Shown here: piece after piece, positions 3,283-61,896 of the stretch
How the letters are laid out: each line of letters starts with the position of its first letter
Position numbering within the stretch: the first letter of the stretch is position 1
DNA from: Chlamydiota bacterium
GTDB taxonomy: Bacteria > Auribacterota > JACPWU01
Reading direction: 5' to 3'
Length of the DNA: 64,000 bases
Assembly: GCA_016196885.1 (NCBI GenBank)
Contig: JACPWU010000021.1
Location: forward strand, 3,618 to 67,617
Notes under the pieces: generated by a model
What the model saw: only the letters and a program-made list of their open reading frames with translations
What the model was told of the DNA's origin: nothing
The model's database searches: none
Translations under genes and position numbers: made by a program

Positions 3283-3296
3283 GATAAAACCAGTGC

Positions 3297-3386
3297 AAAA
3301 TGAAAAGTGTAAAATTAAAAATAAAGAAAAAAAGGTTTACTGAAATCGTTCTCAATTTTTCATTCTTAATTTTTCATTCTTAATTT
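3297..3386. repeat. Element J1 (aaaatgaaaagtg ... (aatttttcattctt)x2), lpxB-oxidoreductase junction
   Basis: Shares both ends with J2; encodes the C-terminus of the oxidoreductase. Confidence 0.5.
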
Positions 3387-9131: not shown

Positions 9132-9156
9132 CTCAATCTCCCCTGTTTAATTTTTA

Positions 9157-11445
9157 TTAAAATGAATAACCGATATTAAAATCAAATCTCCCCTTGCTGT
9201 CCTGAAACCTGTCCCGATCAATGGGCCAACCATAATCCAAACGGATCGGGCCAATGGGCAACTCCAATCGAAGGCCAATTCCCGCGCCTGCCCTCAAATC
9301 CCCCAAATCAAATTCTCCATAATCCTCATACACATTCCCCGTGTCATAAAAAACAGCTCCGCGAACCTTTTCAATAATGGGAAACGTCAGCTCAGTACTT
9401 CCCATAATCATGGAACTTCCTCCGATGGGTTCACCGTTTTCGTCCTTCGGGCCCACATCTCTAAACTTAAAACCGCGAATGGTATTGGCCCCCCCTAAGA
9501 AAAATCTTTCGAAAAGGGGAACTCGATCCGTATCTCCGAAACTGTCCACCAAGCCCGCTTGACCACTCAAACGTAAAACGAGGGACAAGGGCAGGGGAAA
9601 ATAAATGCTGTGCTTGGTCACATATTTCGTAAAATCGCGGTCAAGGCCCAGCGGTCCCCCTGCCAGCTCTCCACTGATCGCATTTCGCATGCCCCGAGTG
9701 GGAGAAAGGGCGCTGTCGCGGGTATCCCGCGTCAGGGCCAATTCGATGCTGCTCACATCGGCTGTCCCTTCCTCTTGCTTAATGGCATCCGAGGCCTTAT
9801 CCGAAACATTTCGAATTTCATCCTCCTCCAAGGTGTAGGTCAAATCCGCTCTCACAAACTCCATCAATCTCTTCCCCAATCGAAGATCTCCTCCGGTTCT
9901 TCTTTCATCATAAACATCGCTCAAGAAACGGCTGTCCCTTCGGTAAAGATCCATACCGAAAGAGATCGGACGGTCAAAAAGCCACGGCTCTGTCCAGCTC
10001 AACGTATAATCCTGGCGCTTGGTTCCCACCTGGGCTCGAATCCGAAGCTTCTGGCCATCGCCCGTAAAGGTGGGGAAACTCTTCCAATCAAAATTCTTTT
10101 GAGTGAGTTCCACAAAACCAATCAAATTATCAATCGAGCTGAAACCCGCCCCAAATCCGATCTCTCCCGTCTTCGTTTCCTCCACATCAACTAAAAGATC
10201 CTTGTGATCCTCTTTATCCGTGGACTCAATGTCCATGTAGACGGTTTTGAAATATCCCAAATTCATCAAGCGCTCTTGGCTGCGGCGCACCTTGACCCCA
10301 TTAAAAACCTCGCCCGGCTTCACGGCCAATTCCCGCCGAATTACAATGTCTTTGGTCTTCGTATTGCCCCGAATCTTAATCTCGTTTAAATAAGACATCT
10401 GGTTTTCCGTAATGGAATACGTGACATCAATACACTTGGTTTTGTCATTGTAAACAGTCTGGGGGCCAATCACCGCATCCACGTAGCCCTTGGCCAAATA
10501 ATAATCCCGGATCTGATTCACATCATTCCTCAATTTATCCGGCGTAAAAATCTGCCCAGGGGTCATTTTAAAAGGCTGGGTGATCTCTTGAGTCGGGAAT
10601 GTCTCATTGCCCTCCATGACCACCTGTCCTACATAATAGAAGGAGCCCTCCTCTACCGTGATGAGAAGGGTCATCCTTCGACCCGTCTTGTCATAAGAAA
10701 ATTTCACATCTTTAATTTCGGCATCAATGTAACCTTGAGAGCGATAAAACTCCAGTAAGCGTTCTTTATCCTCTTCAAAAACATCCTCGTTGAAATTGCC
10801 CCCGAAAAAGATGAAAGGCCTTCGGGTTTTCATTACCTTGCGAAGACGCTTGGTGGGGATGGCTTTATTTCCTGAAAAATCCACCCGCCGAATCTTGATA
10901 TGAGCTCCCTCATGCACGTGGATGATGATGGCCGCATGTCCGATCTCCTTATCAATGGAGAGAGAATAATCCACTTGAGTATTGGGATAACCCTTGTCCC
11001 GGTAGAAATCCTTAATCGCCTGAACATCCTCTTTGAGCTGAGTTTCATTGAGGCGGTCCCCAATGGCCAATTTCATTTTTTTCTTCAAGGCCTTCTCATT
11101 AAATTTTTTATTTCCCTCAAAAACGATTTCCTTCACAATGGGTTTTTCAACCACGATAAAAGTCACCACCCACCCATCAAAATCCTCGTATACATCCACC
11201 TGGACATCAGAGAAATAGCCCATCGCGTAGAGGCGCTTCAAATCATCGTCCACATCGGACTGCTGGAAGGAAGAGCCCTCATGTGTCTTTGCCCGGGACA
11301 GAATAAGATCCCGATTGATCGAGCGATTGCCCTGGACCTCCACCTTCTTCACAAGCTTCTCACCGGACGCTGCCCAAAGGAATGTTCCCTGGCTCGTAAA
11401 GGCAATCCAAAAAACAAACAGACTTAAAATCATCTTCCGTATCAT
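9157..11445 (-). CDS. bamA: Outer membrane protein assembly factor BamA
   Basis: POTRA repeats followed by a C-terminal 16-strand barrel ending in aromatic residues (NIGYSF); start trimmed to the Met of MIRKMILSLFVFWIAF (signal peptide). Confidence 0.8.
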   Translation of the reverse strand: MIRKMILSLFVFWIAFTSQGTFLWAASGEKLVKKVEVQGNRSINRDLILSRAKTHEGSSFQQSDVDDDLKRLYAMGYFSDVQVDVYEDFDGWVVTFIVVEKPIVKEIVFEGNKKFNEKALKKKMKLAIGDRLNETQLKEDVQAIKDFYRDKGYPNTQVDYSLSIDKEIGHAAIIIHVHEGAHIKIRRVDFSGNKAIPTKRLRKVMKTRRPFIFFGGNFNEDVFEEDKERLLEFYRSQGYIDAEIKDVKFSYDKTGRRMTLLITVEEGSFYYVGQVVMEGNETFPTQEITQPFKMTPGQIFTPDKLRNDVNQIRDYYLAKGYVDAVIGPQTVYNDKTKCIDVTYSITENQMSYLNEIKIRGNTKTKDIVIRRELAVKPGEVFNGVKVRRSQERLMNLGYFKTVYMDIESTDKEDHKDLLVDVEETKTGEIGFGAGFSSIDNLIGFVELTQKNFDWKSFPTFTGDGQKLRIRAQVGTKRQDYTLSWTEPWLFDRPISFGMDLYRRDSRFLSDVYDERRTGGDLRLGKRLMEFVRADLTYTLEEDEIRNVSDKASDAIKQEEGTADVSSIELALTRDTRDSALSPTRGMRNAISGELAGGPLGLDRDFTKYVTKHSIYFPLPLSLVLRLSGQAGLVDSFGDTDRVPLFERFFLGGANTIRGFKFRDVGPKDENGEPIGGSSMIMGSTELTFPIIEKVRGAVFYDTGNVYEDYGEFDLGDLRAGAGIGLRLELPIGPIRLDYGWPIDRDRFQDSKGRFDFNIGYSF

Positions 11446-14346: not shown

Positions 14347-14410
14347 ACACACCTCCTTTTCCGAGCCGGCGGCTTTTAATATTTAACAGTTATACGCCCT
14401 CGATGGCCCT

Positions 14411-14515
14411 GGTAGTCGCCCGATTCATCGGGCAATCCCTTGTAGTCACCCGATTCATCGGGCAAGATCCATGCAAGGGGCAAGGGACACGGCCCCATCC
14501 ATGGGGCGACTGCAA
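14411..14515. repeat. Degenerate A-family fragment in the ssb-rpsF intergenic region
   Basis: Two tandem cgcccgattcatcgggcaa hairpin modules plus ccatggggcgactgc. Confidence 0.5.
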
Positions 14516-21618: not shown

Positions 21619-21751
21619 TAGGCATATGCACTTGATTCCCCTCAGATAGAAAGAATTTGTAGTCGCCCCATTTATGGGGCAGCCTTGTGCCCCTTGCATG
21701 GATTGCCCGATGAATCGGGCGACTACTAGGGGAATCAAGTGCATATGCCTA
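21619..21751. mobile_element. MITE family A, copy A1 (133 bp; TIR TAGGCATATGCACTTGATTCCCCT; 8-bp TSD ctttcttt)
   Basis: Imperfect palindrome with terminal inverted repeats and two internal hairpin modules (cgcccgattcatcgggcg and gccccatttatggggc); flanked by identical 8-bp direct repeats. Confidence 0.75.
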
Positions 21752-23177: not shown

Positions 23178-23279
23178 AAATCTCAAATCCAAATATCAAA
23201 AATCAAAGATCAAAATTAAGGAAGAATTCAATTTAATGGACTCCTTAATTTTGGATTTTGAATTTTGGACTTTGATTTT
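23178..23279. promoter_or_regulatory. Palindromic array of ATCAAA(A) heptamers in the divergent purN / sigma-54-regulator promoter region
   Basis: Left arm tcaaatccaaatatcaaaaatcaaagatcaaaatt, right arm aattttggattttgaattttggactttgatttt, around an aagga...tcctt centre. Confidence 0.4.
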
Positions 23280-23288
23280 AAGGTAACC

Positions 23289-28433: not shown

Positions 28434-28790
28434 TAGCCCACGTTTCATCTGAAAATAGTCTTTAGTTATTCTTATACAATAAGTTATGATGACTTGTAGT
28501 CGCCCGATTCATCGGGCAGCCCCATAAATGGGGCGACTACAAGGGTGATTTTCATCCCCCTTTGTGACGGACAGTCATGGCCGCGCGAGGAACGCCTGAG
28601 TCCGCCTTGGATGCGAGGAAGACGCTCCGTGCCATGTGAGGCGTATTTTACAGTACGTCGAGCACGGCCGACCTCTCTTGCGACGCCAGACGAGGCGGAC
28701 TTGGCGCTCGCAGCAGAAATGTGATGAGAAATGTGGGCCAGAAGAAAGATTTCTCAGTCGGGCATCCCGATGTAGCATCGGGATGCTCTT
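28434..28790. repeat. Composite repeat C1 (~355 bp: arm containing an A-core hairpin pair plus ~160-bp palindromic core)
   Basis: Arm tagccc(a/g)cgtttcatctgaaaatagtcttta...gtagtcgcccgattcatcgggcagccccataaatggggcgactacaagggtgattttcatccccctttgtgac...agtcatggcc is shared with C2 in inverted orientation; the core is shared in direct orientation. Confidence 0.65.
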
Positions 28791-30573: not shown

Positions 30574-30593
30574 AATAAAATTTTCCTTGAGAA

Positions 30594-30746
30594 GTGGGTG
30601 GTCCGACTGGGGGTCCCCCGACAAGCGCCAGCAGGTGGAGTCAACGGCTTCTAACAATAACCTATCAAGAACTGACCCGACACCGACCCCACAGGGGGGC
30701 TATAACCTCTGTGCCGTTGTCGGGGGTGAGGAGGAACAGGACCCAC
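30594..30746. repeat. Structured element family B, copy B1 (tsaC-sufT intergenic)
   Basis: Shares ccgactgggggtccccc...cgccagcaggtggag...cgaccccacagggg(g)ctataacctctgtgccg...gggggtgaggagg with B2 and B3; helix segments differ between copies but stay complementary. Confidence 0.7.
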
Positions 30747-30755
30747 TTCTCATCT

Positions 30756-31304: not shown

Positions 31305-31323
31305 TCACTCTACCTCCAACAAA

Positions 31324-31472
31324 GCGGGTGTCCCGACTGGGGGTCCCCCACTGTGCGCCAGCAGGTGGAGTCCTACATCTCCTTACTTCCATATGTGACT
31401 TTCCCGACACCGACCCCACAGGGGCTATAACCTCTGTGCCGACAGTGGGGGTGAGGAGGGACAGGCCCCGCT
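31324..31472. repeat. Structured element family B, copy B2 (sufT-sufU intergenic)
   Basis: As B1; terminal helix gcggg/cccgc and internal helix actgtg/cacagt. Confidence 0.7.
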
Positions 31473-31479
31473 ACCTTAA

Positions 31480-35290: not shown

Positions 35291-35329
35291 CAACCTTTGA
35301 ACTTTTGAACCCTTAAACTTTTGAACCTT
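35291..35329. repeat. Tandem-repeat element H1 (GGTTCAAAAGTT units) in the sufB-sufC intergenic region
   Basis: caacctttgaacttttgaacccttaaacttttgaacc. Confidence 0.45.
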
Positions 35330-35332
35330 TTT

Positions 35333-38498: not shown

Positions 38499-38631
38499 TA
38501 GGCATATGCACTTGATTCCCCTAGTAGTCGCCCGATTCATCGGGCAATCCATGCAAGGGGCACAAGGCTGCCCCATCAATGGGGCGACTACAAATTCTTG
38601 CTATCTGAGGGGAATCAAGTGCATATGCCTA
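38499..38631. mobile_element. MITE family A, copy A2 (133 bp, inverted relative to A1; 8-bp TSD atttttaa), inserted at the left terminus of element B4
   Basis: Near-identical to the reverse complement of A1; flanked by atttttaa on both sides. Confidence 0.75.
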
Positions 38632-38803
38632 ATTTTTAAAAGTGTGTCCTTTATTCATGCGGGTGACACCCAACAGGGTCCCCATCAAGTGCCAGAAGAA
38701 AGAGTCATTTGCATCAGCCATACATCTGGCATCCCTCATCGAGACCGATGCCGTTGATGGGGTGGTTGGGCGGCAGGACCCGCCCCCTTTCCAAAGGACA
38801 CAC
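38632..38803. mobile_element. MITE-like element B4: same outer TIRs as B3 but a different ~110-bp structured core
   Basis: TIR aaaagtgtgtccttt...aaaggacacacttttaaatac; subterminal gcgggtg...cccgcc; internal long-range complement cccaacagggtccccatcaa / ttgatggggtggttggg. Confidence 0.6.
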
Positions 38804-38940
38804 TTTTAAATACATCATCATCAAAAATAGGTAGACACTTCTAGGAAAAATTATGAGATAATTCGAACAAAGAAGGAGTCTCGACCCTGAAACGAATTTT
38901 CATATTCTTAAGCATTTTTCTTCTTTCAGCCTCTCTGGCC

Positions 38941-39639: not shown

Positions 39640-39762
39640 AGGTGATATAGATATTCTCTGATAAGGGCAAACTATCCGTAAGGATAGGACGCAAAGCCAT
39701 GGGCCCCTGGGTAGCTAGGGAGGGGGGTCGCCAGGTTGCCGGAGCATAGGCTGAAGAGTCAA
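39640..39762 (+). promoter_or_regulatory. Candidate c-di-GMP-I (GEMM) riboswitch aptamer
   Basis: GGGCAAAC, then 5-bp stem with GUAA (GNRA) tetraloop, then GGACGCAAAGCC, then a second GC-rich hairpin. The junction strings and stem length match the Vibrio cholerae Vc2 aptamer as recalled from memory. Confidence 0.6.
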
Positions 39763-39814: not shown

Positions 39815-39864
39815 ACGTGTTTTAACGTCTTGTGTGTGCATCCGCGTTCAGAATAGGGAGAAGA

Positions 39865-40188
39865 ATGAAAAGGGTCCTGATCTGCCTATTGGGGATGGGT
39901 ATGATGATCGAGGCAATGAGTGGAGCGAACGCCCGAGGGGAGGAAGGAAAAAGGGGGAGGGAAATTTTTGTTCGTTTTAAGGCTGAAGTCTCTCAAGACA
40001 GGATACAGGATCTCTTCAAGGAATACCAATTAGAGGTGATTGAGAAATACCCCGCCATTGAGAATCTTTATTTGTGCAAGGTTCCATTGGATTTGAAAAC
40101 GCAAGCGGTCATTCGAAAATTAGAAAAGGAGGGCGATGTTGCCTATGTAGAGGCAAATCAGAAAGTGGAAGCACTCGAAGTCCGATAG
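39865..40188 (+). CDS. Secreted standalone subtilisin-propeptide (peptidase inhibitor I9)-like protein
   Basis: SD GGGAGAAG; signal peptide MKRVLICLLGMGMMIEAMSGA; EIFVRFKAEV...LYLCKVPLDL...VAYVEANQKV aligns with the two propeptides of the downstream protease. Confidence 0.65.
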   Translation: MKRVLICLLGMGMMIEAMSGANARGEEGKRGREIFVRFKAEVSQDRIQDLFKEYQLEVIEKYPAIENLYLCKVPLDLKTQAVIRKLEKEGDVAYVEANQKVEALEVR

Positions 40189-40229: not shown

Positions 40230-43200
40230 ATGATGAAGTCCAACTGGATGAAGAGGGGGATTGTGTCATGCATCTTGGGAGTGGGGTTGTGGGGAAGCGC
40301 CAGTCTCTTTTCATTTTCTGATGAAGAAAAGAAATACGCCCCCGATGAATTGCTCGTCCGCTATAAACCAGGGGTTTCGAGTGCCCAAATCCGGCAGTTG
40401 AGAAAGGCCATCCATGCCGAACGTCTCGAGAAGTTTTCCATCAATGATGTGCAGCATTATAAACTCGAGGCCGGTCAGTCTCTTCAAGAAGCTCTTTCAG
40501 AGTTAAAGGGTTCCTCCAAAGTTCTTTACGCAGAACCCAATTATGTTGTGGAGTTAAATCAAACCCCCAACGATCCCGACTTTTCCAAACTCTACGGAAT
40601 GAATAACACCGGCCAGACCGGCGGTACAGCTGACGCCGACATTGATGCCCCCGAGGCTTGGAATACACAGACTGGAAATCAGAACCTCGTGATCGCGATT
40701 ATTGATACGGGCGTGGACTACAACCATCCGGATCTGGCAGCAAATATCTGGACCAATCCCAAGGAAATTGCAGGCAACGGCATAGACGATGACGGCAACG
40801 GTTACGTGGACGATATTCATGGTTGGGATTTTTATAACAAGGACGCCGATCCCATGGATGATCATTACCATGGCACTCACGTAGCGGGCACCATTGCAGG
40901 AGTGGGCAATAACGGCATCGGTGTGACAGGCGTGGTCTGGAAAGCCAAGATCATGGCACTTAAATTCTTGAGCTCGGGTGGATCGGGATACACTTCAGGT
41001 GCGATTTCGGCGATCAATTATGCCACTCAAATGGGCGCAAAAATTTCCAATAACAGCTGGGGGGGCGGGGGCTATTCGCAGGCCTTGAAAGATGCCATCA
41101 CGGCCAATCAGAATGCAGGGGCTTTGTTTGTAGCCGCTGCAGGAAATAGCGGCGTCAATGCAGACACTTCTCCCATGTATCCCGCGGCTTATGACGTGGC
41201 CAATATTATTTCTGTGGCTGCGACGGACGCTAAAGATCAATTGGCCTCTTTTTCAAATTATGGAAAAACCAGCGTGGATTTAGGGGCCCCGGGGGTGAGT
41301 ATTTACAGCACTGCTCCCAACAACACGTATAAAACCTTAAGTGGGACTTCCATGGCAACCCCTCATGTCGCGGGAGCGGTCGCCTTAATCTGGTCTCAAT
41401 TTCCGAGCCTGACGAATCTTCAGGTGAAAGATAAATTGCTCGTCTCCACAGATCCGATTTCAGCCCTGTCTGGAAAAACGGTGAGCGGGGGAAGGCTCAA
41501 CATCAATAATTTTATGGAGAATGACACGACGGCCCCGGCCCCTGTCACTAATTTAGCCACTTCCAGCGTTTCCTATTTTACCACCACACTCACGTGGACA
41601 GCGACGGGAGACGATGGTTTCACAGGACAGGCAAGCACCTATGATTTGCGCTATTCTACGAGTGCCATCACAGAGTCTAATTTTTCCTCGGCCCTTCAGG
41701 CGTCCGGGCTCCCCTCACCTAAGACTTCAGGACAGACAGAGACTTTTAAGGTGACAGGACTTTCTTCCAACACGGCTTATTATTTTGCACTCAAGGTGAA
41801 GGACAACGTGGGAAATACTTCTTCCCTTTCGAATGTGATTTCAGCCACCACCTCTCAGGGAACCACTTTCTACCAGGATAATTTTGAGAATGGCCAGGGA
41901 AGTTGGGTCACAGGAGGAACAAACGGCACGGGTGGAGGGACCTTGTGGCATCTTTCAACCCGTAAATCCAACAGTGCGACCCATTCCTTCTATTATGGCA
42001 GTGAGTCCAAGGGTAATTACAACACAGGACAAGCCAATTATGGTTGGATCACTTCTCCCAAAATTTATTTAACCTCGGCTACCAATTCCACTTTGATTTT
42101 TAACCACTATCTGACGACGGAGAATCTGGCCCCCTATGATGAAGGAAGTGTCAGAATTTCAACAGACGGCGGATCCACTTTTACAACGCTCAACAAATTC
42201 TATTCAACCAGCTCAAAATGGCAACAGGTTTCCGTAGATCTTTCGAAATATGATGGGAAAACCGTCTACATTCAATTTTATTTTACGACGCTGGACGCGC
42301 TCTACAACAGTTATGAAGGTTGGTATGTGGACGATGTGCAGGTGATGGCAGATGGGCAAGGTGACACCACACCTCCTGCCGCGATCAGTAATTTGGCAAT
42401 TTCTTCTCTGGGTCAATATTCCCTGACATTGAACTGGACGGCGACAGGAGACGATGGGAATACGGGAACAGCCTCTTTCTACGATTTACGCTACTCCACG
42501 AGCACCATCACAGATTCCAACTTTTCTTCGGCCGTTCAAGTCTCAGGCCTCTCTTCCCCGAAGGCGGCCGGAAATTCCGAATCCTTTGAAGTGAAGAATC
42601 TTTCCAGTGGAGTCACTTATTATTTTGCGATCAAGGCCACGGACGATCTTTCCAATACCTCCGCTATTTCAAACGGGGTGAATGGAAAAACAAAAACGGG
42701 ACCCAAAATCAGCGTGTCTCCCAGCACCCTTGCGAAAGTCAGTTTGGATGTTGGGAAATCAACCACACAGTCCCTGACGATCCAAAACACAGGCGATGAA
42801 AATTTGACATTTGACATCACAGAAATTCCGACAACCACCGCCAGCAGTGCTGAATCTTCCTCCTCTTTGGAAACGGGATCGAGCGCGTCAGCTGCCTATG
42901 CACCTTCCCAAATTTTGGTGAAATTTAAAGAGGGCCTGTCTGAGGCAGCCATTCATGGACTCGGAGATTCAGTGGACGCAAGAACCGTTAAAATTTATTC
43001 CGACATTGATGTCCATTTGATTGAAACCGCTTCAGGATTGGATGCCCAGGAAATGGCCAGAATGTACCTGGCGAGCGGCTTGGTAGAATATGCAGAACCC
43101 AATTATGTTGTTCAAGCCTTAAGTACCTTCCCCAACGATTCTTCTTTCTCTCAACTCTACGGCCTTCACAACACAGGACAAACGGGGGGAACCGCAGATG

Positions 43201-46200
43201 CGGACATTGACGCCCCTGAGGCCTGGGACACTACAAAGGGGGCAAGCTCGGTCGTGGTGGCAGTGATTGACACGGGTGTAGATTACACACATCCTGACTT
43301 ATCAGCCAACATGTGGACAAACTCAGGAGAAATCCCAAACAATGGATTGGACGATGACGGAGATGGTTATGTGGACGACTATCGAGGATGGGATTTTGTG
43401 AACGAAGACAATGATCCTATGGATGACAATAAGCATGGCACACACGTTTCCGGAACCATTGGTGGAGTTGGAAACAACGGTACAGGCGTCGCCGGTGTTT
43501 GTTGGAACGTCAAAATCATGCCTCTTAAATTCTTAAGTGGGAGTGGGTCTGGATACACCTCGGATGCAGTCGAGGCCGTTCTTTACGCCAATAAAAAAGG
43601 TGCGAATGTGATGAGCAACAGCTGGGGCGGCGGCGGATATTCTCAGGCCCTGTATGACGCTATTAAAGCGGCCGAGGTGAAAGGCATTCTCTTCGTAGCC
43701 GCCGCGGGAAATAGCTCGAGCAACAATGATCAAGTGGCCAATTATCCCTCGAATTACAACATCTCGAACGTCATTGCCGTCGCAGCCACAGATGCGAACG
43801 ATGCCCTGGCCTGGTTTTCAAATTATGGAGCGAACACGGTTCATTTGGGCGCCCCGGGGGTCAGCATCTATAGTACCCTGCCGGGAAACACCTATGGCTC
43901 TTTGAGTGGAACTTCCATGGCGACCCCCCATGTAGCTGGGGCTTGTGCCCTCGTGTGGTCCGCGAATCCTTCCTGGAATTATGCGAAAGTGAAAAATCAG
44001 ATCATGGTGGGCACAGATAAAATTTCGAGCATGAGTGGTAAAACAGTTTCAGGCGGTCGGCTGAATGTTTACAAAGCCCTTCAAGCGGCAGAAACCACGC
44101 CTCCCTCAGCCGTCACCGATTTGTCCAGCTCCATGGTTTCTTTTTCCACCCTTAAACTTAAATGGACGGCAACGGGGGATGATGGCAATACCGGAACAGC
44201 CACCTCTTACGAGATTCGTTATTCTACAAGTTCTATCACGAGTTCTAACTTTAGTTCCGCTACGTTGATCAGCAATACCCCCACACCCAAATCTGCTGGA
44301 GGGGCTGAAGAATTCAACGTCACAGGCCTTTCCCAAAAGACAACTTATTACTTTGCCATGAAAGTGACCGATGATGCCAGCAACACCTCTGGCCTTTCGA
44401 ATGTGACCTCTGCCACCACAGACGAAGCGGTGGTAACCTACTTGGATAGCATGGAAACAGGAGCCGGATGGACGGTGACAGGCTTGTGGCATCTTTCCAC
44501 ACGAAAATCTAACAGCCCCACGCATTCTTTCTATTATGGAGACGAGACCAAAGGAAATTACGATACAGGTTCTACCACCCAAGGGACGCTGACATCCTCT
44601 ACCATCGACCTTTCATCGGGGGTCACGCCTCAACTCTCTTTTCAATATTGGAGAAAAGTGGAGTCGGGAGGGATCTATGACAAAACCTATTTAGAAATTT
44701 CAAAAGACAATGGCTCCAATTGGACCCAGCTTTGGTACAAGAACTCCAGCAACACCTCTGAACAAGCCTGGACCAGTTCTGGACCCTTGGATTTAAGCTC
44801 TTACAAAGGCGCTAAAGTCCTTTTGAGATTTACCTTTGATTCTGTGGATGCCTACTTGAATTTTTATGAAGGATTCTACGTGGATGATGTTCAAATCTTG
44901 GATTCAAAAACAGATTTTAACTGGCTCTCCGTGCAACCAGCAACAGGAACCTTAACAGCCAATCAATCTAGCACCGTGACCTTAACCTACACAGCCGTTT
45001 CTAGCGGAACTTACAAAGGAGCCATTCTGATTAAGAGCAATGACCCTGCCAAACCCTCTACCACCCTTTCTCTAGAGTTGACAGCCACTCAAGACACAAC
45101 AGCCCCCTCCGCCATCAGCAATTTAAAAGTTGCCTCCATTGCCAGCAGCAACACCTCTCTAACCCTGACATGGACAGCGCCAGGCGATGACGACAACGTG
45201 GGAACGGCCAGCTCTTATGAAATTCGCTACTCTACAAGCCTCATAACAGATGCTAATTTCAGCGCGGCCACTTTGGCTCCAAATCCACCCACGCCCCAAG
45301 TCGCGGGAAGCACTGAAACCTTCAGCCTGACAGGGCTCGCCCTTTCACAAAATTATTATTATGTTGCGATCAAGACCCAGGACGATGTGGGGCAAGTTTC
45401 TAGCCTCTCCAATGTGGTCAAGACGAGTGACTTGGATTCCGATGGGGACGGGTTGTGCGACCAAGATGAGTACAGCATGGGCACAGATCCTCTCAAGTCA
45501 GATACAGATTCCGATGGGTTCAGCGATGGCCAGGAAAAATCGATTGGGACGGATCCTGTGAAGAGCACAGATTTCCCAGCCACGATTATTCTGACATGCG
45601 ACAATGCCTATGAAATTTACATCAATGGTGTCTTCAAAGGGAATGACTCTAATTGGACAAACAAAGAAACATATTATGCAAAGTTAGGAGACACCATCGC
45701 CATTAAAGGCATAGATCTCGGCGGCATTGCAAGTCTCCTTTGCCAAATCAGCCATGGAAATAAAATCATGCCTTCCAATTTTCTCTGGAAGGCTTCACCT
45801 CAAGCCGCCTCGGGCTGGACAAATCCAAACTTTGACGACTCTTCTTGGCCAGGTGCAGTAGAACATTTTGCATACGGACATGGGCCCTGGGAACAATGGG
45901 TGAACGGATTTGACGCCAGCAACAATTGGATCTGGACGAATCGGCCGGAGGAACATGATACTGTCTATTTTCGGCGGAAGGTGGACTTTTCACAAAATGC
46001 CCTCTTACGGGTTACGGCAGATAATGCCTTTGAAGCTTGGCTGGATGGTCAATACCTGGGATCCAGCAATGTGTGGCATCTGCCCAAATTTTTTATTGGG
46101 ACTGTCAGTGAAGGCAGCCTCATCGCCCTTCACGGGATAGACCTGGGAGGGATAGGAGGACTGCTTGCCTCTCTTACCTACGTGGACTCGAATGGAAAAA

Positions 46201-47336
46201 GGCAAATGGTAGGAACCAACTCCTCATGGAAAATAAGTACCACATCCTCCTCGGGCTGGCAAAACACAGGCTTTGACGAAAACAGCTGGTCCTCAGCGAC
46301 AGAGTGGGCTGCCTTCGGAAGTGGGGTGTGGGGTTCTTTTGACATGGGTGCCCATTTTTCGAATGCAAGCCAAGCCAAGTGGATTTGGGCCTCGGACCCC
46401 TATTCTATCGATGACATCTATGCGAGAAAAACGATCCTCACCCCCAACGCAACACTCAGCATGACGGCGGACAACAAGTTCAAAGTTTATCACAATGGGA
46501 ACCTCGTTGCCTCCAGCTCCCAATGGTGGTCCCCCGCCGTCGTCGGTCTTAATAATCTCCAAAATGGAGACGTCATTGCTGTGAGGGCCGATGATGAAGG
46601 AGGCATTGCAGCGTTTCTTGCAAAGCTGGACTTTAATGGAACTCAAATCTTCTCAAATACAACATGGAAGGCCTCCACAGGACCTTTCTGGGAAGCAGAC
46701 CTCTCTTGGACGTCAAAAAGCTATGACGACTCGAACTGGACAAGCGCCTTCCCAGTCGGAGGCAACGGAATATCCCCGTGGGGATATTTGTCTGACTGTG
46801 GGAGTGCGCAATGGATTTGGGCCTCATCAGACACGGACGGTGTCAACACCTCTTTTTTTAGGTGGACGGTGGGAACCAACAATACAGAAGTAGGTGTAAC
46901 CTCTTTTCTGGTCAGCGCAGACAATGAATACAAGTTCTACAAGAATGGTGTGCTCATCACATCAGGAAGTCGGTGGTATATGCCGGAGAGCTTCACATGT
47001 TTATTATCCCCTGGGGATGTCATTGCGATCGAGGCAAGAGATTATGGTTATAAAGCGGGACTTTTGCTCTACGCCTCCGGGGCTTATAACCTCGTCTCGG
47101 ACAGCTCTTGGAAAATGAGTACCACCGAACAGTCGGGAGGATGGGCGAGTAAAACATTTGACGACTCTGGCTGGGCTTCAGCCAGTGATCACGGGGCCTA
47201 CGGCATTGCACCTTGGGGAAGCAATGCTTCAGGATTCCCAACCAGTTCTTCAGCTCGTTGGATTTGGGGCCCCAACAATCAGACTGGGGCAACAAACATT
47301 GATTCCCACGTCTTCTTCAGAAAGAAAATTGCTTAA
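40230..47336 (+). CDS. 2368-aa secreted multidomain protein with two complete propeptide(I9)-subtilisin(S8) units, Fn3-like and MAM/lectin-like jelly-roll domains, thrombospondin-type-3-like Ca-binding repeats and four C-terminal ~150-aa beta-sandwich repeats
   Basis: Signal peptide; catalytic triads present twice (IDTGVDY(N/T)HPDL, HGTHV(A/S)GTI, GTSMATPHVAG); repeated LxWTAxGDDGxxGxAxxYxxRYSTSxITxxNFSSA modules; DSDGDG motifs; repeats containing WIW and FDDSxW. Confidence 0.8.
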   Translation: MMKSNWMKRGIVSCILGVGLWGSASLFSFSDEEKKYAPDELLVRYKPGVSSAQIRQLRKAIHAERLEKFSINDVQHYKLEAGQSLQEALSELKGSSKVLYAEPNYVVELNQTPNDPDFSKLYGMNNTGQTGGTADADIDAPEAWNTQTGNQNLVIAIIDTGVDYNHPDLAANIWTNPKEIAGNGIDDDGNGYVDDIHGWDFYNKDADPMDDHYHGTHVAGTIAGVGNNGIGVTGVVWKAKIMALKFLSSGGSGYTSGAISAINYATQMGAKISNNSWGGGGYSQALKDAITANQNAGALFVAAAGNSGVNADTSPMYPAAYDVANIISVAATDAKDQLASFSNYGKTSVDLGAPGVSIYSTAPNNTYKTLSGTSMATPHVAGAVALIWSQFPSLTNLQVKDKLLVSTDPISALSGKTVSGGRLNINNFMENDTTAPAPVTNLATSSVSYFTTTLTWTATGDDGFTGQASTYDLRYSTSAITESNFSSALQASGLPSPKTSGQTETFKVTGLSSNTAYYFALKVKDNVGNTSSLSNVISATTSQGTTFYQDNFENGQGSWVTGGTNGTGGGTLWHLSTRKSNSATHSFYYGSESKGNYNTGQANYGWITSPKIYLTSATNSTLIFNHYLTTENLAPYDEGSVRISTDGGSTFTTLNKFYSTSSKWQQVSVDLSKYDGKTVYIQFYFTTLDALYNSYEGWYVDDVQVMADGQGDTTPPAAISNLAISSLGQYSLTLNWTATGDDGNTGTASFYDLRYSTSTITDSNFSSAVQVSGLSSPKAAGNSESFEVKNLSSGVTYYFAIKATDDLSNTSAISNGVNGKTKTGPKISVSPSTLAKVSLDVGKSTTQSLTIQNTGDENLTFDITEIPTTTASSAESSSSLETGSSASAAYAPSQILVKFKEGLSEAAIHGLGDSVDARTVKIYSDIDVHLIETASGLDAQEMARMYLASGLVEYAEPNYVVQALSTFPNDSSFSQLYGLHNTGQTGGTADADIDAPEAWDTTKGASSVVVAVIDTGVDYTHPDLSANMWTNSGEIPNNGLDDDGDGYVDDYRGWDFVNEDNDPMDDNKHGTHVSGTIGGVGNNGTGVAGVCWNVKIMPLKFLSGSGSGYTSDAVEAVLYANKKGANVMSNSWGGGGYSQALYDAIKAAEVKGILFVAAAGNSSSNNDQVANYPSNYNISNVIAVAATDANDALAWFSNYGANTVHLGAPGVSIYSTLPGNTYGSLSGTSMATPHVAGACALVWSANPSWNYAKVKNQIMVGTDKISSMSGKTVSGGRLNVYKALQAAETTPPSAVTDLSSSMVSFSTLKLKWTATGDDGNTGTATSYEIRYSTSSITSSNFSSATLISNTPTPKSAGGAEEFNVTGLSQKTTYYFAMKVTDDASNTSGLSNVTSATTDEAVVTYLDSMETGAGWTVTGLWHLSTRKSNSPTHSFYYGDETKGNYDTGSTTQGTLTSSTIDLSSGVTPQLSFQYWRKVESGGIYDKTYLEISKDNGSNWTQLWYKNSSNTSEQAWTSSGPLDLSSYKGAKVLLRFTFDSVDAYLNFYEGFYVDDVQILDSKTDFNWLSVQPATGTLTANQSSTVTLTYTAVSSGTYKGAILIKSNDPAKPSTTLSLELTATQDTTAPSAISNLKVASIASSNTSLTLTWTAPGDDDNVGTASSYEIRYSTSLITDANFSAATLAPNPPTPQVAGSTETFSLTGLALSQNYYYVAIKTQDDVGQVSSLSNVVKTSDLDSDGDGLCDQDEYSMGTDPLKSDTDSDGFSDGQEKSIGTDPVKSTDFPATIILTCDNAYEIYINGVFKGNDSNWTNKETYYAKLGDTIAIKGIDLGGIASLLCQISHGNKIMPSNFLWKASPQAASGWTNPNFDDSSWPGAVEHFAYGHGPWEQWVNGFDASNNWIWTNRPEEHDTVYFRRKVDFSQNALLRVTADNAFEAWLDGQYLGSSNVWHLPKFFIGTVSEGSLIALHGIDLGGIGGLLASLTYVDSNGKRQMVGTNSSWKISTTSSSGWQNTGFDENSWSSATEWAAFGSGVWGSFDMGAHFSNASQAKWIWASDPYSIDDIYARKTILTPNATLSMTADNKFKVYHNGNLVASSSQWWSPAVVGLNNLQNGDVIAVRADDEGGIAAFLAKLDFNGTQIFSNTTWKASTGPFWEADLSWTSKSYDDSNWTSAFPVGGNGISPWGYLSDCGSAQWIWASSDTDGVNTSFFRWTVGTNNTEVGVTSFLVSADNEYKFYKNGVLITSGSRWYMPESFTCLLSPGDVIAIEARDYGYKAGLLLYASGAYNLVSDSSWKMSTTEQSGGWASKTFDDSGWASASDHGAYGIAPWGSNASGFPTSSSARWIWGPNNQTGATNIDSHVFFRKKIA

Positions 47337-51396: not shown

Positions 51397-51844
51397 TTGT
51401 AGTCGCCCCATTTATGGGGCCATGCATGGATTGCCCGATAAATCGGGCGACTACGCTTGACGGATCAAGAATACTTGAGCCAAGTCCATATGCCAAAATT
51501 TATTTCTCCGACAGGCTCCTAGCCCGCATTTCTCATCAGATTTCGTCGCGAGTCCGCCTAAGGTGGATTGGAGGGGAGGTTGCACGACTGAGGCCATGCG
51601 AGGCATACCTTACAGTATGTTGAGCGTGGCCGACCGAGTCTGCACGGAGGGACGAAGCGGAATCGGAGAAGAGCGGCAGAAATCTGACGAGAAACGGCCA
51701 TGACTTTCAGTCACAAAGGGGGATGAAAATCACCCTTGTAGTCGCCCCATTTATGGGGCTGCCCGATGAATCGGGCGACTACAAGTAATCATAACTTATT
51801 GTATAAAAATAAGTAAAGACTATTTTCAGATGAAACGCGGGCTA
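51397..51844. repeat. Composite repeat C2 (inverted-arm copy of C1, with an extra A-core hairpin at its left end)
   Basis: Core gcatttctcatcagatttcg...ttacagtatgttgagcgtggccgacc...gcagaaatctgacgagaaac followed by the reverse-complemented C1 arm; overlaps the stop of the hypothetical secreted-protein gene. Confidence 0.65.
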
Positions 51845-56029: not shown

Positions 56030-56698
56030 TTATTTTGAGGCAATACTAACATCCTTGATTACTTGGGGCAGGTATAAATTCATCCAAGAGGTTTGTTTCT
56101 GAGAAAGAACCTCTTTTGTCCCAATACCCTTTGTCATTTCAAAACAGCCATTCATTTGAATTAAGAGTTCACGGACCTCTAAGCTTTCTGAAAGATTCTC
56201 CAAGGCCTTTCTAAATTCACTCGGGTAACTCGCATGAAGAAGGCATAGGTCATAAATATCTGTAGGTTCAATTCGATCCACAACACAATAGAGTTTCTCC
56301 AGGATCATGTCTTTTTCAGATAAAATCGGGCACCGAAGTTCGGGCTCATAAAGCAATGTGACCGGACGCCAAATTTTTCCAATATCGACTTTTGTTTCAA
56401 GTTTGGGATATCTGATATACAGTTGACAGAAGTGTTCTCCACGACGCGTAATTCTATATTTAACCTTCTCAAGATTACACTGCTTCACAAGCTCAAGCAT
56501 CGCCTTGTAACTAGAGATTTCTTCTTTCGGGGAGAGAATATCTACGTCCTTACTGTTGCGCGCATGTTGTGGAAGTCTTAAGGTTAGCCACGTTCCTCCC
56601 GAGAGGGCATAATTTTTACGGATGAGCGGACATTTTAAAATCCATTTGGCAAGTGATAAAATATCTTGCCTTGAAGGCTCTTCAGGCATTTTTTTCAT
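56030..56698 (-). CDS. AbiEii/DUF1814-family nucleotidyltransferase (type IV TA toxin-like)
   Basis: N-terminal motif LSGGTWLTLRL...RNSKDVDIL matches the GGTxL...RxSxDhD signature of AbiEii-type NTases; overlaps the stop of the upstream HTH gene. Confidence 0.55.
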   Translation of the reverse strand: MKKMPEEPSRQDILSLAKWILKCPLIRKNYALSGGTWLTLRLPQHARNSKDVDILSPKEEISSYKAMLELVKQCNLEKVKYRITRRGEHFCQLYIRYPKLETKVDIGKIWRPVTLLYEPELRCPILSEKDMILEKLYCVVDRIEPTDIYDLCLLHASYPSEFRKALENLSESLEVRELLIQMNGCFEMTKGIGTKEVLSQKQTSWMNLYLPQVIKDVSIASK

Positions 56699-57086
56699 AA
56701 AGACCTCGAATCAGACTTTTGCGAAAAATTCTTTCAAGAAGGGTTCTTCCTTTGCGCACATATTTTTCCGCCACAGACCTTTGAATCATTTTAGGAATGA
56801 GTTGTGGGGCACGCCTAAAAAGAATGGGAATCATTTCTTCTTTCGATGGGATTGATTGTTCTCTCCAGAAGATTGAATAGGGAGCTATTTTTTGAGGTCT
56901 TCCAGAGGAATAGTGTCCTTGAATTTTTTTAAAACGATCGAAAGAAGCTAATGGAATAAACCAGGTATGTCCCTTTTTCAAACATTGCTTCAAGCGCTTT
57001 TCCCGGCAATATCGAGCCATCAAGGACTTCGTAATTCCTAATCTTGCCGCTGCCTCAGTGGCTGTTAAGAAAACATTCTTCATCAT
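56682..57086 (-). CDS. HTH (excisionase/HTH_17-like) DNA-binding protein, putative antitoxin/regulator partner of the NTase
   Basis: MMKNVFLTATEAAARLGITKSLMARYCREKRL helix-turn-helix; track ORF (TTG start inside repeat H2) trimmed to the internal Met pair. Confidence 0.45.
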   Translation of the reverse strand: MMKNVFLTATEAAARLGITKSLMARYCREKRLKQCLKKGHTWFIPLASFDRFKKIQGHYSSGRPQKIAPYSIFWREQSIPSKEEMIPILFRRAPQLIPKMIQRSVAEKYVRKGRTLLERIFRKSLIRGLYEKNA

Positions 57087-57201
57087 GATTTTATTATACA
57101 CTATTTTGAACAATTTTTGAAAAATTTTGGGATGGTAGACTTTGGTCAAATGGACTGGATTTGATTCGGGAATTTTAAAGGTTAAAGATTTTAAGTATTT
57201 T

Positions 57202-57242
57202 AACCCTTGGACGTTTGAACTTTTCAACCCTTAAACTTTTTT
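57202..57242. repeat. Element H2 between the HTH gene and mnmE
   Basis: aacccttggacgtttgaacttttcaacccttaaacttttttt, similar to H1. Confidence 0.45.
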
Positions 57243-58652
57243 TCACTTCCCAATGCAAAACCTCGAGAAAAGGGTCTGGATCATTTCTTCATTGACAGAG
57301 GTGCCCAATAATTCATCCCATTTCAGAAGGGCGCTGTGAAGATCGCTGGAGATCAAGTCATCTCCTAAATTGTTTTCTAAGGCGTTCTGGGCACTCCTCA
57401 AGTCTTTCTCCACCGCCTGCAAGATTTCTTGATGCCGGGCGTTGACGAGGTATTGGCATTCTAAAATGTCATTTTTGGATTTCACCCATTTTAGAAGAGC
57501 CTCTTCCAGCGTTTTCAAACCCTGTCCCAAAAGGAGAGAAGTTTCAAAAAAAGGATGGCGAGGAAAGGTTTTTAAAATTTCACTTTTCGAAAAATTTTTG
57601 TTCAAATCCACTTTGTTAAAAATCAACATCGCATCTTTTCCATTGCCCAACCAGGGTTGGACCTTGGTAAGATCAAAAGGGGAGCCAGAGACATCAAAAA
57701 TCCACAAAATTAAATCCGCTTCTTCATATTGATGATGCGTGACTTCAATTCCCTTTTTCTCGACAATGTTTTCGGGTTCTCTCAGGCCCGCCGTGTCTAC
57801 CAAACGCAAGGGAACGCCATTAAAATTCATTTCGTATTCGATAGCATCTCTCGTTGTGCCCGGTAGTTCAGTCACAATGGCCAATTCTTTTTTGGCCAAT
57901 GAATTGAGAAGACTGGATTTTCCAACATTGGGCTCTCCCATGAGAACCCCTTTAAAACCCTCTTTCAAGATGCGTCGCGTTTTGGCCCCTTTTAAAAGAT
58001 TCTGAATTTCGTCCCTGATTTCTTTTAGAAGTTGAGCGTAATCTCGCGGGGAAACGCCTTGCGGAACATATTCTGGAAAATCAATGTTGGCCTCGGTCTC
58101 GACCATCACGTCAAAAATTTTTTGACGGAGGTTGAGTAATTTTCCAGAGAATTCTCCTTTCAGTTGCTGGAGGGCATATTTTCTTTGCAGTTCGGATTTT
58201 GCCTGAATCAAATCTATAACGGCCTCTGCCTGAGAAAGGTCTAAGCGGCCATTTAAAAAGGCCCTTTGGGTGAATTCTCCTGGCCGGGCTAGGCGGGCCC
58301 CTTTTTCCAAGATGAGCGACAGAATTCTTTGAGCCAGATAGGGGCTTCCGTGGAGATAAATTTCAAAAGAGTCTTCGCAGGTGTAACTTTTGGGAGCTTT
58401 AAATACACACCCCATTCCTTCATCCAAAGCCTCTTTCTCATCCGAAACGGATCCCAAATACAAGCGCTGAATCTCAAAGGAAGAAGGGGATTTGCCTGAG
58501 GACGTCCTGAAAATTTGATCGGCGATCATGAGAGAAGCGCTCCCGCTCAAGCGAAGCACGGCCAAAGCGCCTTCTCCAAGAGGCGTGGCAAGGGCCACAA
58601 TGGTGTCTTCAGCAATATTGGAGACATCTTTATTTTTCATGCCCATTTCCAT
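57243..58652 (-). CDS. mnmE: tRNA modification GTPase MnmE/TrmE
   Basis: G1 GEPNVGKSSL, G3 DTAG, G4 NKVD, C-terminal CIGK. Confidence 0.85.
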   Translation of the reverse strand: MEMGMKNKDVSNIAEDTIVALATPLGEGALAVLRLSGSASLMIADQIFRTSSGKSPSSFEIQRLYLGSVSDEKEALDEGMGCVFKAPKSYTCEDSFEIYLHGSPYLAQRILSLILEKGARLARPGEFTQRAFLNGRLDLSQAEAVIDLIQAKSELQRKYALQQLKGEFSGKLLNLRQKIFDVMVETEANIDFPEYVPQGVSPRDYAQLLKEIRDEIQNLLKGAKTRRILKEGFKGVLMGEPNVGKSSLLNSLAKKELAIVTELPGTTRDAIEYEMNFNGVPLRLVDTAGLREPENIVEKKGIEVTHHQYEEADLILWIFDVSGSPFDLTKVQPWLGNGKDAMLIFNKVDLNKNFSKSEILKTFPRHPFFETSLLLGQGLKTLEEALLKWVKSKNDILECQYLVNARHQEILQAVEKDLRSAQNALENNLGDDLISSDLHSALLKWDELLGTSVNEEMIQTLFSRFCIGK

Positions 58653-58674
58653 AACCTTATGGGTTCCAGAAACT

Positions 58675-59082
58675 TCATCGTGTCAGCCATTCCTTTAGAA
58701 AGTCTGCGGGAGATCGGACATGGACTCCCAACTTTTTCGCGGCATGAAAATGTCTTGCATTGCCCGTGACCAGGACCTCCACATGGCCCGTGACAGCCAC
58801 CTCGATGAAGGCACGGTCCGTCTCATCCAAAAACCGATCAGGGATGACTTGTGGCAAAACCAGCAGTGCCTGGTCTAACAAGGCATCCAAAAAGTCGTCA
58901 ACACTTTGATTAGAAAGGGAAAACTTTCCACGGGTGAGAACTTCACGATACTCATTGCAAATGCGATCGTCCACGCAAAGTTCCACATCACCTCGTAAGA
59001 GGAGTTGAACAACTCGATGGCAAGTCCCACCTGGTGTGAGAATGGACGACACCAAAACATTTGTATCTAGAACAATCCTCAT
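58675..59082 (-). CDS. PIN-domain ribonuclease-type toxin
   Basis: MRIVLDTNVLVSS with conserved acidic residues; ATGA overlap with the upstream antitoxin stop. Confidence 0.6.
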   Translation of the reverse strand: MRIVLDTNVLVSSILTPGGTCHRVVQLLLRGDVELCVDDRICNEYREVLTRGKFSLSNQSVDDFLDALLDQALLVLPQVIPDRFLDETDRAFIEVAVTGHVEVLVTGNARHFHAAKKLGVHVRSPADFLKEWLTR

Positions 59083-59375
59083 GGTGAAGGATGCCGTCTT
59101 CCTCTTCGAACTTGCTGAATCCACCCTTCGATCTGTGTCTTGCTCAGCCGATTCAACCCCTTTCGTCTGGCCTCTTCCTGTAGTTTAATCAAAGCGGCCA
59201 TACCCCGAGCTTGACGCCAAACACGCAAGGTTTGTTCGAAGGATCTCTCATTCAGAGGCGCGAGCAATCCCATGGGTTTACCTCTGGATGTCAATACCAG
59301 CTCTCTTTCTTCCTTTAGCATTCGCCACACAGAGCCAGGGTGGAGACGAAATTCTCTGACCGGTACGAATTTCAT
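59079..59375 (-). CDS. Phd/YefM-like antitoxin
   Basis: MKFVPVREFRLHPGSVWRMLKEERELVLTSRGKPMGLL is a typical Phd N-terminus; trimmed from the track ORF. Confidence 0.55.
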   Translation of the reverse strand: MKFVPVREFRLHPGSVWRMLKEERELVLTSRGKPMGLLAPLNERSFEQTLRVWRQARGMAALIKLQEEARRKGLNRLSKTQIEGWIQQVRRGRRHPSP

Positions 59376-59458
59376 AGGCCCTCCATTTCCTACGTAAAGT
59401 CTACATGATGTTATCCTCAAGGTCAACCTCTAAAGATTCACCTACTTGCTAAGATCGT

Positions 59459-59663
59459 GTATTTAAAAGTGTGTCCTTTTATGGATGCGGGTGGCCCGAC
59501 TGGGGGTCCCCCGCTGATCGCCAGCAGATGGAGAACATGGACCTCTCGTTACATTCAAAACCCAACCGACATCGACCCCACGGGGGCTATAACCTCTGTG
59601 CCGTCAGCGGGGGTGAGGAGGGACAGGACCCGCCTCCTCTTAAAAGGACACACTTTTAAATAC
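59459..59663. mobile_element. Family B copy B3 with outer 22-bp TIRs GTATTTAAAAGTGTGTCCTTTT / AAAAGGACACACTTTTAAATAC (MITE-like), upstream of the Phd-PIN module
   Basis: B core at 59487..59634 flanked by perfect terminal inverted repeats. Confidence 0.65.
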
Positions 59664-59741
59664 AGCATCCTTGCTAACGTCCCCTTAAAATTCTATCATT
59701 CATGAACAAAAGTCGTTGCTAAAGAGGGAGAAAGAACTTTA

Positions 59742-59822
59742 AACCCAGAATTTGCAATAGGCCGCGGAATTCGACGCAAGATCTTGCTCTTGAGTTCTCG
59801 CGTCTATTGCAAAATCTGGGTT
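59742..59822. repeat. Palindromic element G1 (aacccagaatttgcaatag ... ctattgcaaaatctgggtt)
   Basis: 81-bp element with 19-bp terminal inverted repeats and internal gcaagatcttgc palindrome, between yidC stop and element B3. Confidence 0.6.
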
Positions 59823-59901
59823 AAAAAGTAACCCTCCCATTCCCCCCTTACAAGCGAGTCCGGGTGCTCTGAAGAAACGTATCTCGAGAAAAAAAGGGGG
59901 T

Positions 59902-61569: not shown

Positions 61570-61597
61570 TGGAGTTACCTTGTTTTCTAAAATAAGT

Positions 61598-61682
61598 GAA
61601 AAATGAAAAGTGAACAATGAAAATTTGCCAAGAACTTTAACGAAATTCACTTCTTATTCTTAATTTTTCATTCTTAATTTTT
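61598..61682. repeat. Element J2, yidD-yidC junction
   Basis: gaaaaatgaaaagtgaac...attcttaatttttcattcttaattttt; overlaps the yidD stop and creates the N-terminal GTG extension of the yidC ORF. Confidence 0.5.
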
Positions 61683-61896
61683 AACTGTCCTTTATTGGAT
61701 CATATCCGCCCGAGTGAAAGGGATGACATTTTAAAATTCTTTTTAAACCCAAAAATAAACCTCGCCAGCCCCCTTTTTTCTCGACCGCAAGGCGACAATA
61801 CTCCGAGCAATTGGGCTGGAAACGACAGGCGGGCCCGAGAAAAGGTGAAACGAGCGTTTGATACATCCGAATCAAAAGAGAAACAAGCATTTTCAT
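61681..61896 (-). CDS. yidD: Membrane protein insertion efficiency factor YidD
   Basis: YQTLVSPFLGPACRFQPNCSEYCRLAVEKKG is the YidD signature. Confidence 0.8.
   Translation of the reverse strand: MKMLVSLLIRMYQTLVSPFLGPACRFQPNCSEYCRLAVEKKGGWRGLFLGLKRILKCHPFHSGGYDPIKDS

Follow-up and report, generated by a model that had tools for sequence, protein, structure and literature searches.

An intergenic hairpin repeat family, sometimes nested in an outer palindrome, in a chlamydial genome

The segment at positions 59459-59663 of the window (the whole 64-kb stretch of chlamydial DNA that was analysed) holds a structured core, here termed B, enclosed by two inverted arms. It raises the question of whether such a segment is a transposable shell that can carry different structured cargos, as a sequence-only reading of this DNA had proposed, or whether the core is itself the repeated element and the arms an addition to it. 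The answer favoured here, at a probability of roughly 45%, is that B represents a lineage-specific, non-autonomous intergenic hairpin repeat of ~150 nt, REPIN- or MITE-like in character, that is sometimes nested in an outer palindrome. B is most probably selfish, intergenic DNA rather than a new cargo-carrying transposon; as a sequence family it is new, and its general kind has already been described in bacteria.

Arms, cores and the mosaic of four related copies

A profile search of the window recovers four copies of B only (B1-B4), all on the + strand. B3 (59459-59663, +) comprises a core and both arms. Its left arm GTATTTAAAAGTGTGTCCTTTTA (59459-59481, +) forms a perfect 23-bp inverted repeat with the right arm TAAAAGGACACACTTTTAAATAC (59641-59663, +), and between them lies the core (59486-59636, +), a rod-like hairpin with helices P1-P5 that is identified by nhmmer (E = 2.9e-43), cmsearch (168.6 bits), its fold and its covariation. 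In B4, the left arm (38632-38652, +) carries two mismatches at its outer end and abuts a different repeat, the E element described below; it is followed by the core (38658-38786, +) and the right arm (38793-38813, +). B1 (about 30588-30751, with the core at 30594-30750, +) and B2 (about 31323-31474, +) are naked cores, and P1 of B1 is extended to 11 bp (GAGAAGTGGGT/ACCCACTTCTC).

The arms form the outer palindrome, termed S. The 21-mer GTATTTAAAAGTGTGTCCTTT or its reverse complement occurs exactly at 59459-59479(+), 59643-59663(-) and 38793-38813(-), and with two mismatches at 38632-38652(+); with up to three mismatches allowed, these are the only four matches in the window, arranged as two inverted pairs, where 0.01 would be expected by chance. 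The sequence-only reading had described a perfect 22-bp terminal inverted repeat (TIR), identical in B3 and B4. The B3 inverted repeat is indeed perfect, at 23 bp, though the TIR as quoted measures 21 nt. The right arm of B4 matches B3 at 21/21 positions, but the two mismatches in its left arm reduce the B4 repeat to 18 bp if perfect, or to 19/21, and the right arm ends at 38813, 10 nt farther than the end formerly given (38803).

The ends of the two S-bearing copies differ in detail. Weaker, imperfect complementarity runs 11 nt farther out from the B3 arms, the ends of which can be read as TA-TTTAAAAG...CTTTTAAA-TA, though TA also belongs to the palindrome; the left end of B4 is TAATT-TTTAAAAG, with no TA flank there. 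The spacers between arms and P1 are TATGGA/TCCTCTTA in B3 versus ATTCA/CCCTTTCC in B4, which implies that the S arms were either conserved selectively or acquired separately. B3 and B4 additionally have the end bases of P1 in common (ATGCGGGTG ... GACCCGCC), positions at which B1 and B2 read AAG[C/T]GGGTG ... CCC[G/A]C[T]. Judging from the sequence, removal of the B3 core together with one TA would fuse the arms into a perfect 44-bp palindrome, so that S may be a palindrome into which B preferentially lands, or else a further layer of nesting. Two S-bearing copies, B3 and B4, were found in ~77 kb (the window plus flank), both with a B-family core, and neither an empty S palindrome nor S around a non-B interior was seen in the window and its ~13 kb of flank. 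B1 and B2 had been said to lack the outer TIRs, and none was found at either copy even when up to five mismatches were allowed.

The B3 core had also been recognized as the same element as B1 and B2, and with this the outer modules agree, being 81-91% identical among the three copies. Those of B3 are 84-91% identical to B1/B2 versus 68-72% to B4, and the inner domains of B3 and B4 are 46% identical. The view that B3 and B4 carry unrelated interiors of ~110 bp is contradicted by models built from B1-3 alone, which match the B4 core end to end. The profile HMM aligns with it collinearly over model positions 2-148 (E = 3.5e-4), and the covariance model (R1) scores it at 37.2 bits (E ~7e-6), the next-best background match reaching 13.9 bits. 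At its outer ends, B4 is homologous to B1-3 over 37-38 nt (5') and 35 nt (3'), with 66-76% identity; these stretches adopt the same fold and carry P1-P3. The unalignable part is confined to the apical domain, which measures 53 nt in B4 versus 74-80 nt in B1-3 (45% identity). B4 is hence a diverged member of the B family.

The architecture of the family is concentric. The S arms (layer 0) are present in B3 and B4, helices P1-P3 (layer 1) in all four copies, and an inner domain with the conserved blocks GCCAGCAGRTGGAG and CCGACAYCGACCCCAC..GGGGCTATAACCTCTGTGCCG (layer 2) in B1-3, its place being taken by another domain in B4; the apex of B1-3 (layer 3; 59534-59565, +, in B3) is a variable segment of 32-36 nt that is barely alignable between copies. 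The earlier picture of a modular shell with exchangeable cargos is therefore right in part: the mosaic is real, with the S arms uniting B3 and B4, the inner domain uniting B3 with B1 and B2, and the core existing also without arms, but the supposed cargos belong to a single family whose members have diverged while keeping their outer helices. That the S arms of B3 and B4 are alike while their cores belong to different subfamilies points to separate histories of the layers, or to an exchange of cores by gene conversion.

All four copies are identical in an independent NCBI assembly (GCA_016178005.1, contig JACOUD010000001.1), to which the window DNA is 99.8-100% identical and the window proteins match exactly. 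The same organism is also present in the Logan assemblies of SRR12113387 and SRR12113416. The nearest database relatives are only ~65% identical in SufT.

Fold and covariation of the core

Every B copy folds as one long imperfect hairpin, or rod. In the four-sequence alignment, 94.4% of the pair cells are standard pairs and both sides have changed in 11/36 pairs, values that none of 500 column-shuffle controls reached; when the 3' partners are slid by 1-3 columns, 42-53% of the cells are paired and 0-4 double changes are retained. P3 contains a hypervariable 5-bp block (alignment columns 28-32 paired with 126-130), which in B3 is GCTGA at 59510-59514 (+), paired with TCAGC at 59605-59609. The block reads GACAA in B1, ACTGT in B2, GCTGA in B3 and ATCAA in B4 and is always fully compensated, with all five pairs changed on both sides, and invariant C5/G5 pairs border it. 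Invariant blocks thereby stand directly beside saturated variable ones, namely this P3 block and the apex.

Several more specific readings of the fold were tried and set aside. The apical variable segments, considered as guides, have no match beyond chance in ~150 kb of sequence. G-U pair counts and folding energies are both balanced between strands and allow no call of the folding strand. A terminator scan gave no intrinsic terminator-like sites, and the U run of S falls within the stem. Boxes resembling the R''/R' boxes of integron attC sites (ACCCAAC / GTTGGGC) occur in B4 and are missing from B1-3, and that reading was dropped. For B, no Rfam family matched in the window at gathering thresholds, and lax Rfam searches with the four copies on both strands gave nothing better than E = 0.3. 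The lack of an Rfam family, together with the lack of any copy outside this organism (see below), fits a young, lineage-restricted selfish repeat.

Genomic placement, neighbouring repeats and searches for further copies

B1 and B2 sit in one minus-strand suf operon, B2 between sufU and sufT and B1 between sufT and tsaC (Sua5). They take up 152-157 nt of spacers measuring 175 and 182 nt, beginning 5-6 nt past the upstream stop codon (5 nt past that of sufU for B2) and ending 15-19 nt ahead of the next start codon (18 nt ahead of that of sufT for B2), with the ribosome-binding site alone left. There are no direct repeats or target duplications at the ends of B1 or B2. The flanks of the B copies show a loose CTT(T)AA on one side, made up partly of stop codons and partly of the S palindrome (n=4), and no flanking motif common to all four copies was established (n=4). 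A likeness of the right flank of B2 to S is regarded as coincidence, as conserved C-terminal coding sequence of sufU lies there. The C-terminus encoded by sufU, VTTEDNV*, is conserved in a relative, indicating that B2 never had a shell or room for one. In one relative, sufU and sufT are 15 nt apart; in the sister MAG GCA_016178055.1, the spacer between them measures 268 nt and is filled with other hairpin repeats. B is thus best regarded as an insertion, at a site that is permissive.

The same operon differs between assemblies and relatives in two further respects. The window sufS (32292) is without 69 nt (23 codons, in frame) that are found in the NCBI record; the segment encodes NVLPYKFEAGTPHVAGAIGLGAA, is presumably conserved in SufS, and its absence reflects strain variation or else a difference in assembly. 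The sufB of the sister MAG (L065 2946-5453) encodes 835 aa with a LAGLIDADG domain, which is probably an intein, and the window sufB 477 aa.

B3 lies between yidC and a toxin-antitoxin pair (Phd-like/PIN) that interrupts a conserved rnpA-yidD-yidC-mnmE-mnmG cluster, and 75 nt separate it from the C element, a hairpin MITE. The genes on either side of B4 encode a fatty-acid desaturase and a zinc-ribbon protein, and B4 directly abuts the E element. The genes beside the B copies have no common function. GC skew is negative throughout the window, giving the + strand a lagging-strand composition; the location of 4/4 B copies on one strand is not significant (p = 0.125).

In the region of B3, two toxin-antitoxin modules (Phd-like + PIN toxin; HTH + AbiEii) occupy 56030-59426 and are inserted in the otherwise conserved cluster rnpA-yidD-yidC-mnmE-mnmG-parA-parB, which usually lies near the replication origin. 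The 145 nt at 59298-59442, 16 nt from B3, are absent in the NCBI record; they include the promoter predicted for the Phd-like antitoxin and encode its N-terminus; in that record the protein is reduced to a 64-aa stump, and the junction shows GTA microhomology. On the far side of B4, a c-di-GMP-I-GGC riboswitch aptamer (39657-39744, +; 67.4 bits against a gathering score of 59) stands upstream of genes for a small fervidolysin-prodomain protein (39832-40188) and a giant subtilase/fibronectin-repeat protein of 2368 aa (40230-47336).

The intergenic DNA of this organism is full of nested palindromes, of which B is one kind among several. The E element (38499-38631), MITE-like and 133 bp long, has a perfect 24-bp TIR (TAGGCATATGCACTTGATTCCCCT) bounded by TA, around a GTAG-tagged REP dimer, and its second copy at 21619-21751 is ~99% identical to it along the whole length. 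GTAG-tagged REP hairpins (GTAGTCGCCC[G/C]AT..ATCGGGC), mostly inverted dimers, occur at 14409-14489, 28493-28543, 51397-51454 and 51735-51785 and imply that a RAYT-type transposase is, or formerly was, active in this chlamydial genome. The GTAG REP dimers at 28493-28543 and 51735-51785 are naked, and those at 21619-21751 and 38499-38631 are enclosed by the E TIR; a core with or without a palindromic shell is thus seen in the same window for GTAG REP dimers too. Short AT-rich tandem or inverted oligomer repeats (e.g. TTTTCATTCTTAATTT, ACTTTTGAACC) are further present in several intergenic regions (3285-3400, 23182-23282, 35293-35330, 57203-57240 and 61588-61694).

The C element (59738-59826; TIR TTTAAACCCAGAATTTGCAATAG) has a longer copy in the sister Chlamydiae MAG (GCA_016178055.1, L065 ~9068-9260). 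Ends of ~60 nt and ~45 nt agree almost base for base between the two, and in the sister MAG a further ~125 nt of palindrome occupies the centre. Given that these ends are near-identical though SufT is only ~65% identical, the C element has probably moved between the MAGs, which suggests that MITEs may be exchanged between co-occurring chlamydiae.

Searches for a mobilizing enzyme and for further copies bear on the earlier suggestion that the shell is transposable. The 64-kb window and a further ~13 kb of flank encode no transposase and hold no full-length IS, no target-site duplication is clearly seen, and the TIR was found nowhere else in the collections scanned. Among 241 M metagenome records, the 21-nt TIR gave one unpaired match, within a coding region, which is ascribed to chance. 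Scans of viral contigs with the TIR, the 3' block of the core and a 5' pattern of the core yielded unpaired chance matches or nothing, blastn searches of plasmid and phage collections yielded nothing, and neither did comparison of six-frame-translated B with protein databases. An 82-codon ORF over B3 matches two low-complexity giant proteins, which are irrelevant. A core pattern that fits all four copies gave 49 single matches in a collection of representative genomes that does not include this MAG; these fall in unrelated high-GC genomes, none is B-like by blastn, and they are attributed to chance. Neither nhmmer nor the covariance model detected B copies in ~13 kb of same-contig flank or at the suf genes of the two closest relatives, and no empty site or polymorphic insertion of B was seen.

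Known systems and rival explanations

The hairpin-repeat reading proposes that B folds, as single-stranded DNA or as RNA, into its one long imperfect hairpin and that this structure may be what a mobilizing enzyme recognizes. As B1 and B2 illustrate, the element would enter tight intergenic spacers, making no target duplication and needing no TIR. Such entry would resemble that of REPINs or IS200/IS605-type hairpin elements, with structure-recognizing transposases, rather than that of a MITE moved by cut and paste. If structure is what is recognized, the upkeep of the helices by compensatory change and the free drift of the apex would both be explained. In B3 and B4, S forms a second, AT-rich palindrome with arms of 18-23 bp, and a B-family member occupies its centre, the core presumably being nested within S or S being added around it.

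Precedents exist among repeats of the REP type. REP dimers are regularly embedded in long palindromes in three species, and in 2/3 of these, REP-free 'targets' were not found (Di Nocera et al. 2013, PMC3733652, section 7). B within S presents the same case. Like REP dimers and REPINs, B is short and intergenic, forms one long hairpin, lacks a target duplication and shows paired changes (PMC3733652; REPINs, Bertels and Rainey, PMC3337134). Furthermore, like REP dimers, including the GTAG REP dimers of the same genome, it occurs both naked and within an outer palindrome (PMC3733652). However, B is not a classical REP: its termini, A[A/T]G[C/T]GGGTG ... CCC[G/A]C, have no conserved GTAG or CGTC tag, and it is not composed of two short REP hairpins but is longer (~150 nt), its five helices being accompanied by conserved internal loops. 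The window contains no RAYT/TIRYT gene. The motif GGGGWSAS, associated with the TIRs of TIRYT systems and present in B1-3, was considered and rejected, as its 18 occurrences in the window do not significantly exceed the 14.8 expected.

Other short repeats of bacteria are similar in part. The Correia/NEMIS elements of Neisseria measure 100-155 bp, have 26-bp TIRs and a TA duplication, and are transcribed and cut by RNase III. B resembles them in its size, in the long perfect TIRs of shell S, in the possible TA at B3, in its intergenic position within operons and in that the whole element is foldable in mRNA. In contrast to Correia copies, which are similar over their whole length, B3 and B4 share the arms and outer helices only, half of the B copies are without TIRs, and there is no sequence similarity. 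BIMEs, BOX and ERIC are, like B, intergenic mosaics of conserved modules plus inserts that vary or may be missing and that occupy set places inside the repeat, though the modules of BIMEs, BOX and ERIC are linear or tandem and those of B concentrically nested, the host taxa are others, and sequence similarity is absent. With the IS200/IS605-derived PATEs, B has in common the lack of TIRs and target duplications (in B1 and B2), a presumed dependence on a DNA hairpin and a possible bias towards one replication strand; PATEs, however, comprise two subterminal hairpins beside a fixed tetra- or pentanucleotide, whereas B is a single continuous rod.

Three further explanations have to be weighed against the hairpin-repeat reading. 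It is unlikely that S is the TIR of a classical cut-and-paste MITE, mobilized in trans by a DDE transposase, with interiors that diverge or are swapped and with B1/B2 as immobile or separately derived cores. Arms that are perfect or nearly so and identical at loci ~21 kb apart, beside spacers that have diverged, are the signature of TIR-only conservation; B3 has TA on both sides, the window holds other MITEs with TA-bounded TIRs, and a MITE family common, at high identity, to a distantly related co-occurring MAG would mean that active transposases circulate in the community. Yet MITE families comprise many copies similar over their whole length, whereas two shell copies are known in ~77 kb and the same core family is found in both. 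The left end of B4 lacks TA and the outer 3 nt, the imperfect repeat 11 nt farther out blurs the end of B3, ~77 kb contain no transposase or full-length IS, and the TIR is missing from the metagenome and viral collections. In addition, B2 never had a shell, so that some other route is needed to account for the movement or origin of the core. The resemblance of B3 and B4 might instead go back to gene conversion, in which an ancestor with S and a B4-like core was duplicated and one core was overwritten from a B1/B2-type copy to yield B3, with breakpoints in the GCGGGTG and CAGGACCCGC blocks. The arms and P1 end bases that B3 and B4 share, unlike B1/B2, and the clean switch of B3 to the B1/B2 type inside the P1-end blocks would follow from such an event. 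This chimeric origin nevertheless has only a slim chance of being correct, given that the differing arm-to-P1 spacers show the outer layer not to be a simple recent duplicate and that, with two shell copies, independent nesting predicts the same pattern.

B could also be a functional structured RNA, either a processing, stabilizing or insulating hairpin that acts in cis and is cut by RNase III or a small antisense RNA, with the S arms as a longer closing helix in two copies. The strong covariation, the conserved internal-loop and junction sequences beside saturated stems and apex, and the shared orientation of 4/4 copies are all consistent with this, as is the regular position of B1/B2 between suf cistrons, just past a stop codon and just ahead of a ribosome-binding site; the presence of a different hairpin in the homologous spacer of the sister MAG would fit if one of whatever kind were required there. 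A function as RNA is doubtful, however, considering that the neighbours (sufT, tsaC, the Phd-like antitoxin gene and the fatty-acid desaturase gene) are functionally incoherent, that no promoter or terminator signal marks a separate RNA gene, and that there is neither an Rfam family nor a homologue in other organisms in the collections scanned. Moreover, identical S arms cannot come from convergence, the genomic company of B is other selfish repeats, and neither pairs nor energies determine which strand folds. A riboswitch or other cis-regulator was dropped as the lead explanation on the grounds that the downstream genes are functionally unrelated. The juxtaposition of conserved and saturated blocks nonetheless counts against the hairpin-repeat reading, as it resembles the outcome of prolonged selection on a functional molecule more than that of recent transposition. 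It would be accommodated if B were a structured element maintained by selection, with its conserved junctions, five covarying helices, an 'address-like' 5-bp block and a free apex, forming a small multi-copy family that can lie inside, or recruit, a mobile shell of palindromic sequence. It might then belong to a new class of elements for RNA processing within operons, or serve a structure-specific recombinase as its recognition hairpin; such a role is considered rather improbable.

If the hairpin-repeat reading is correct, the mobile DNA of environmental Chlamydiae, which has been little studied, would gain in B a well-defined, structure-conserving hairpin family. B would also provide a clean case of concentric palindrome nesting, with a bearing on how REP- and MITE-like elements choose their targets, namely the centres of other hairpins. 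No new kind of transposon is revealed on present evidence. By placing strong hairpins between cistrons, such elements could affect mRNA processing in essential operons (suf, yidC-mnmE).

B-like elements also break short-read assemblies, as seen in Logan contigs of this organism whose ends fall within or next to such elements. Contigs end at 31427 (inside B2), at 38790 (at the B4 right arm) and at 59798 (inside the C element); the ends at 31427 and 59798 are the same in SRR12113387 and SRR12113416, and that at 38790 occurs in one sample. The in-window copies have fewer than 30 identical bases in common at these contig ends, so the breaks hint at more copies elsewhere, at population variants or at hairpin-related loss of coverage.
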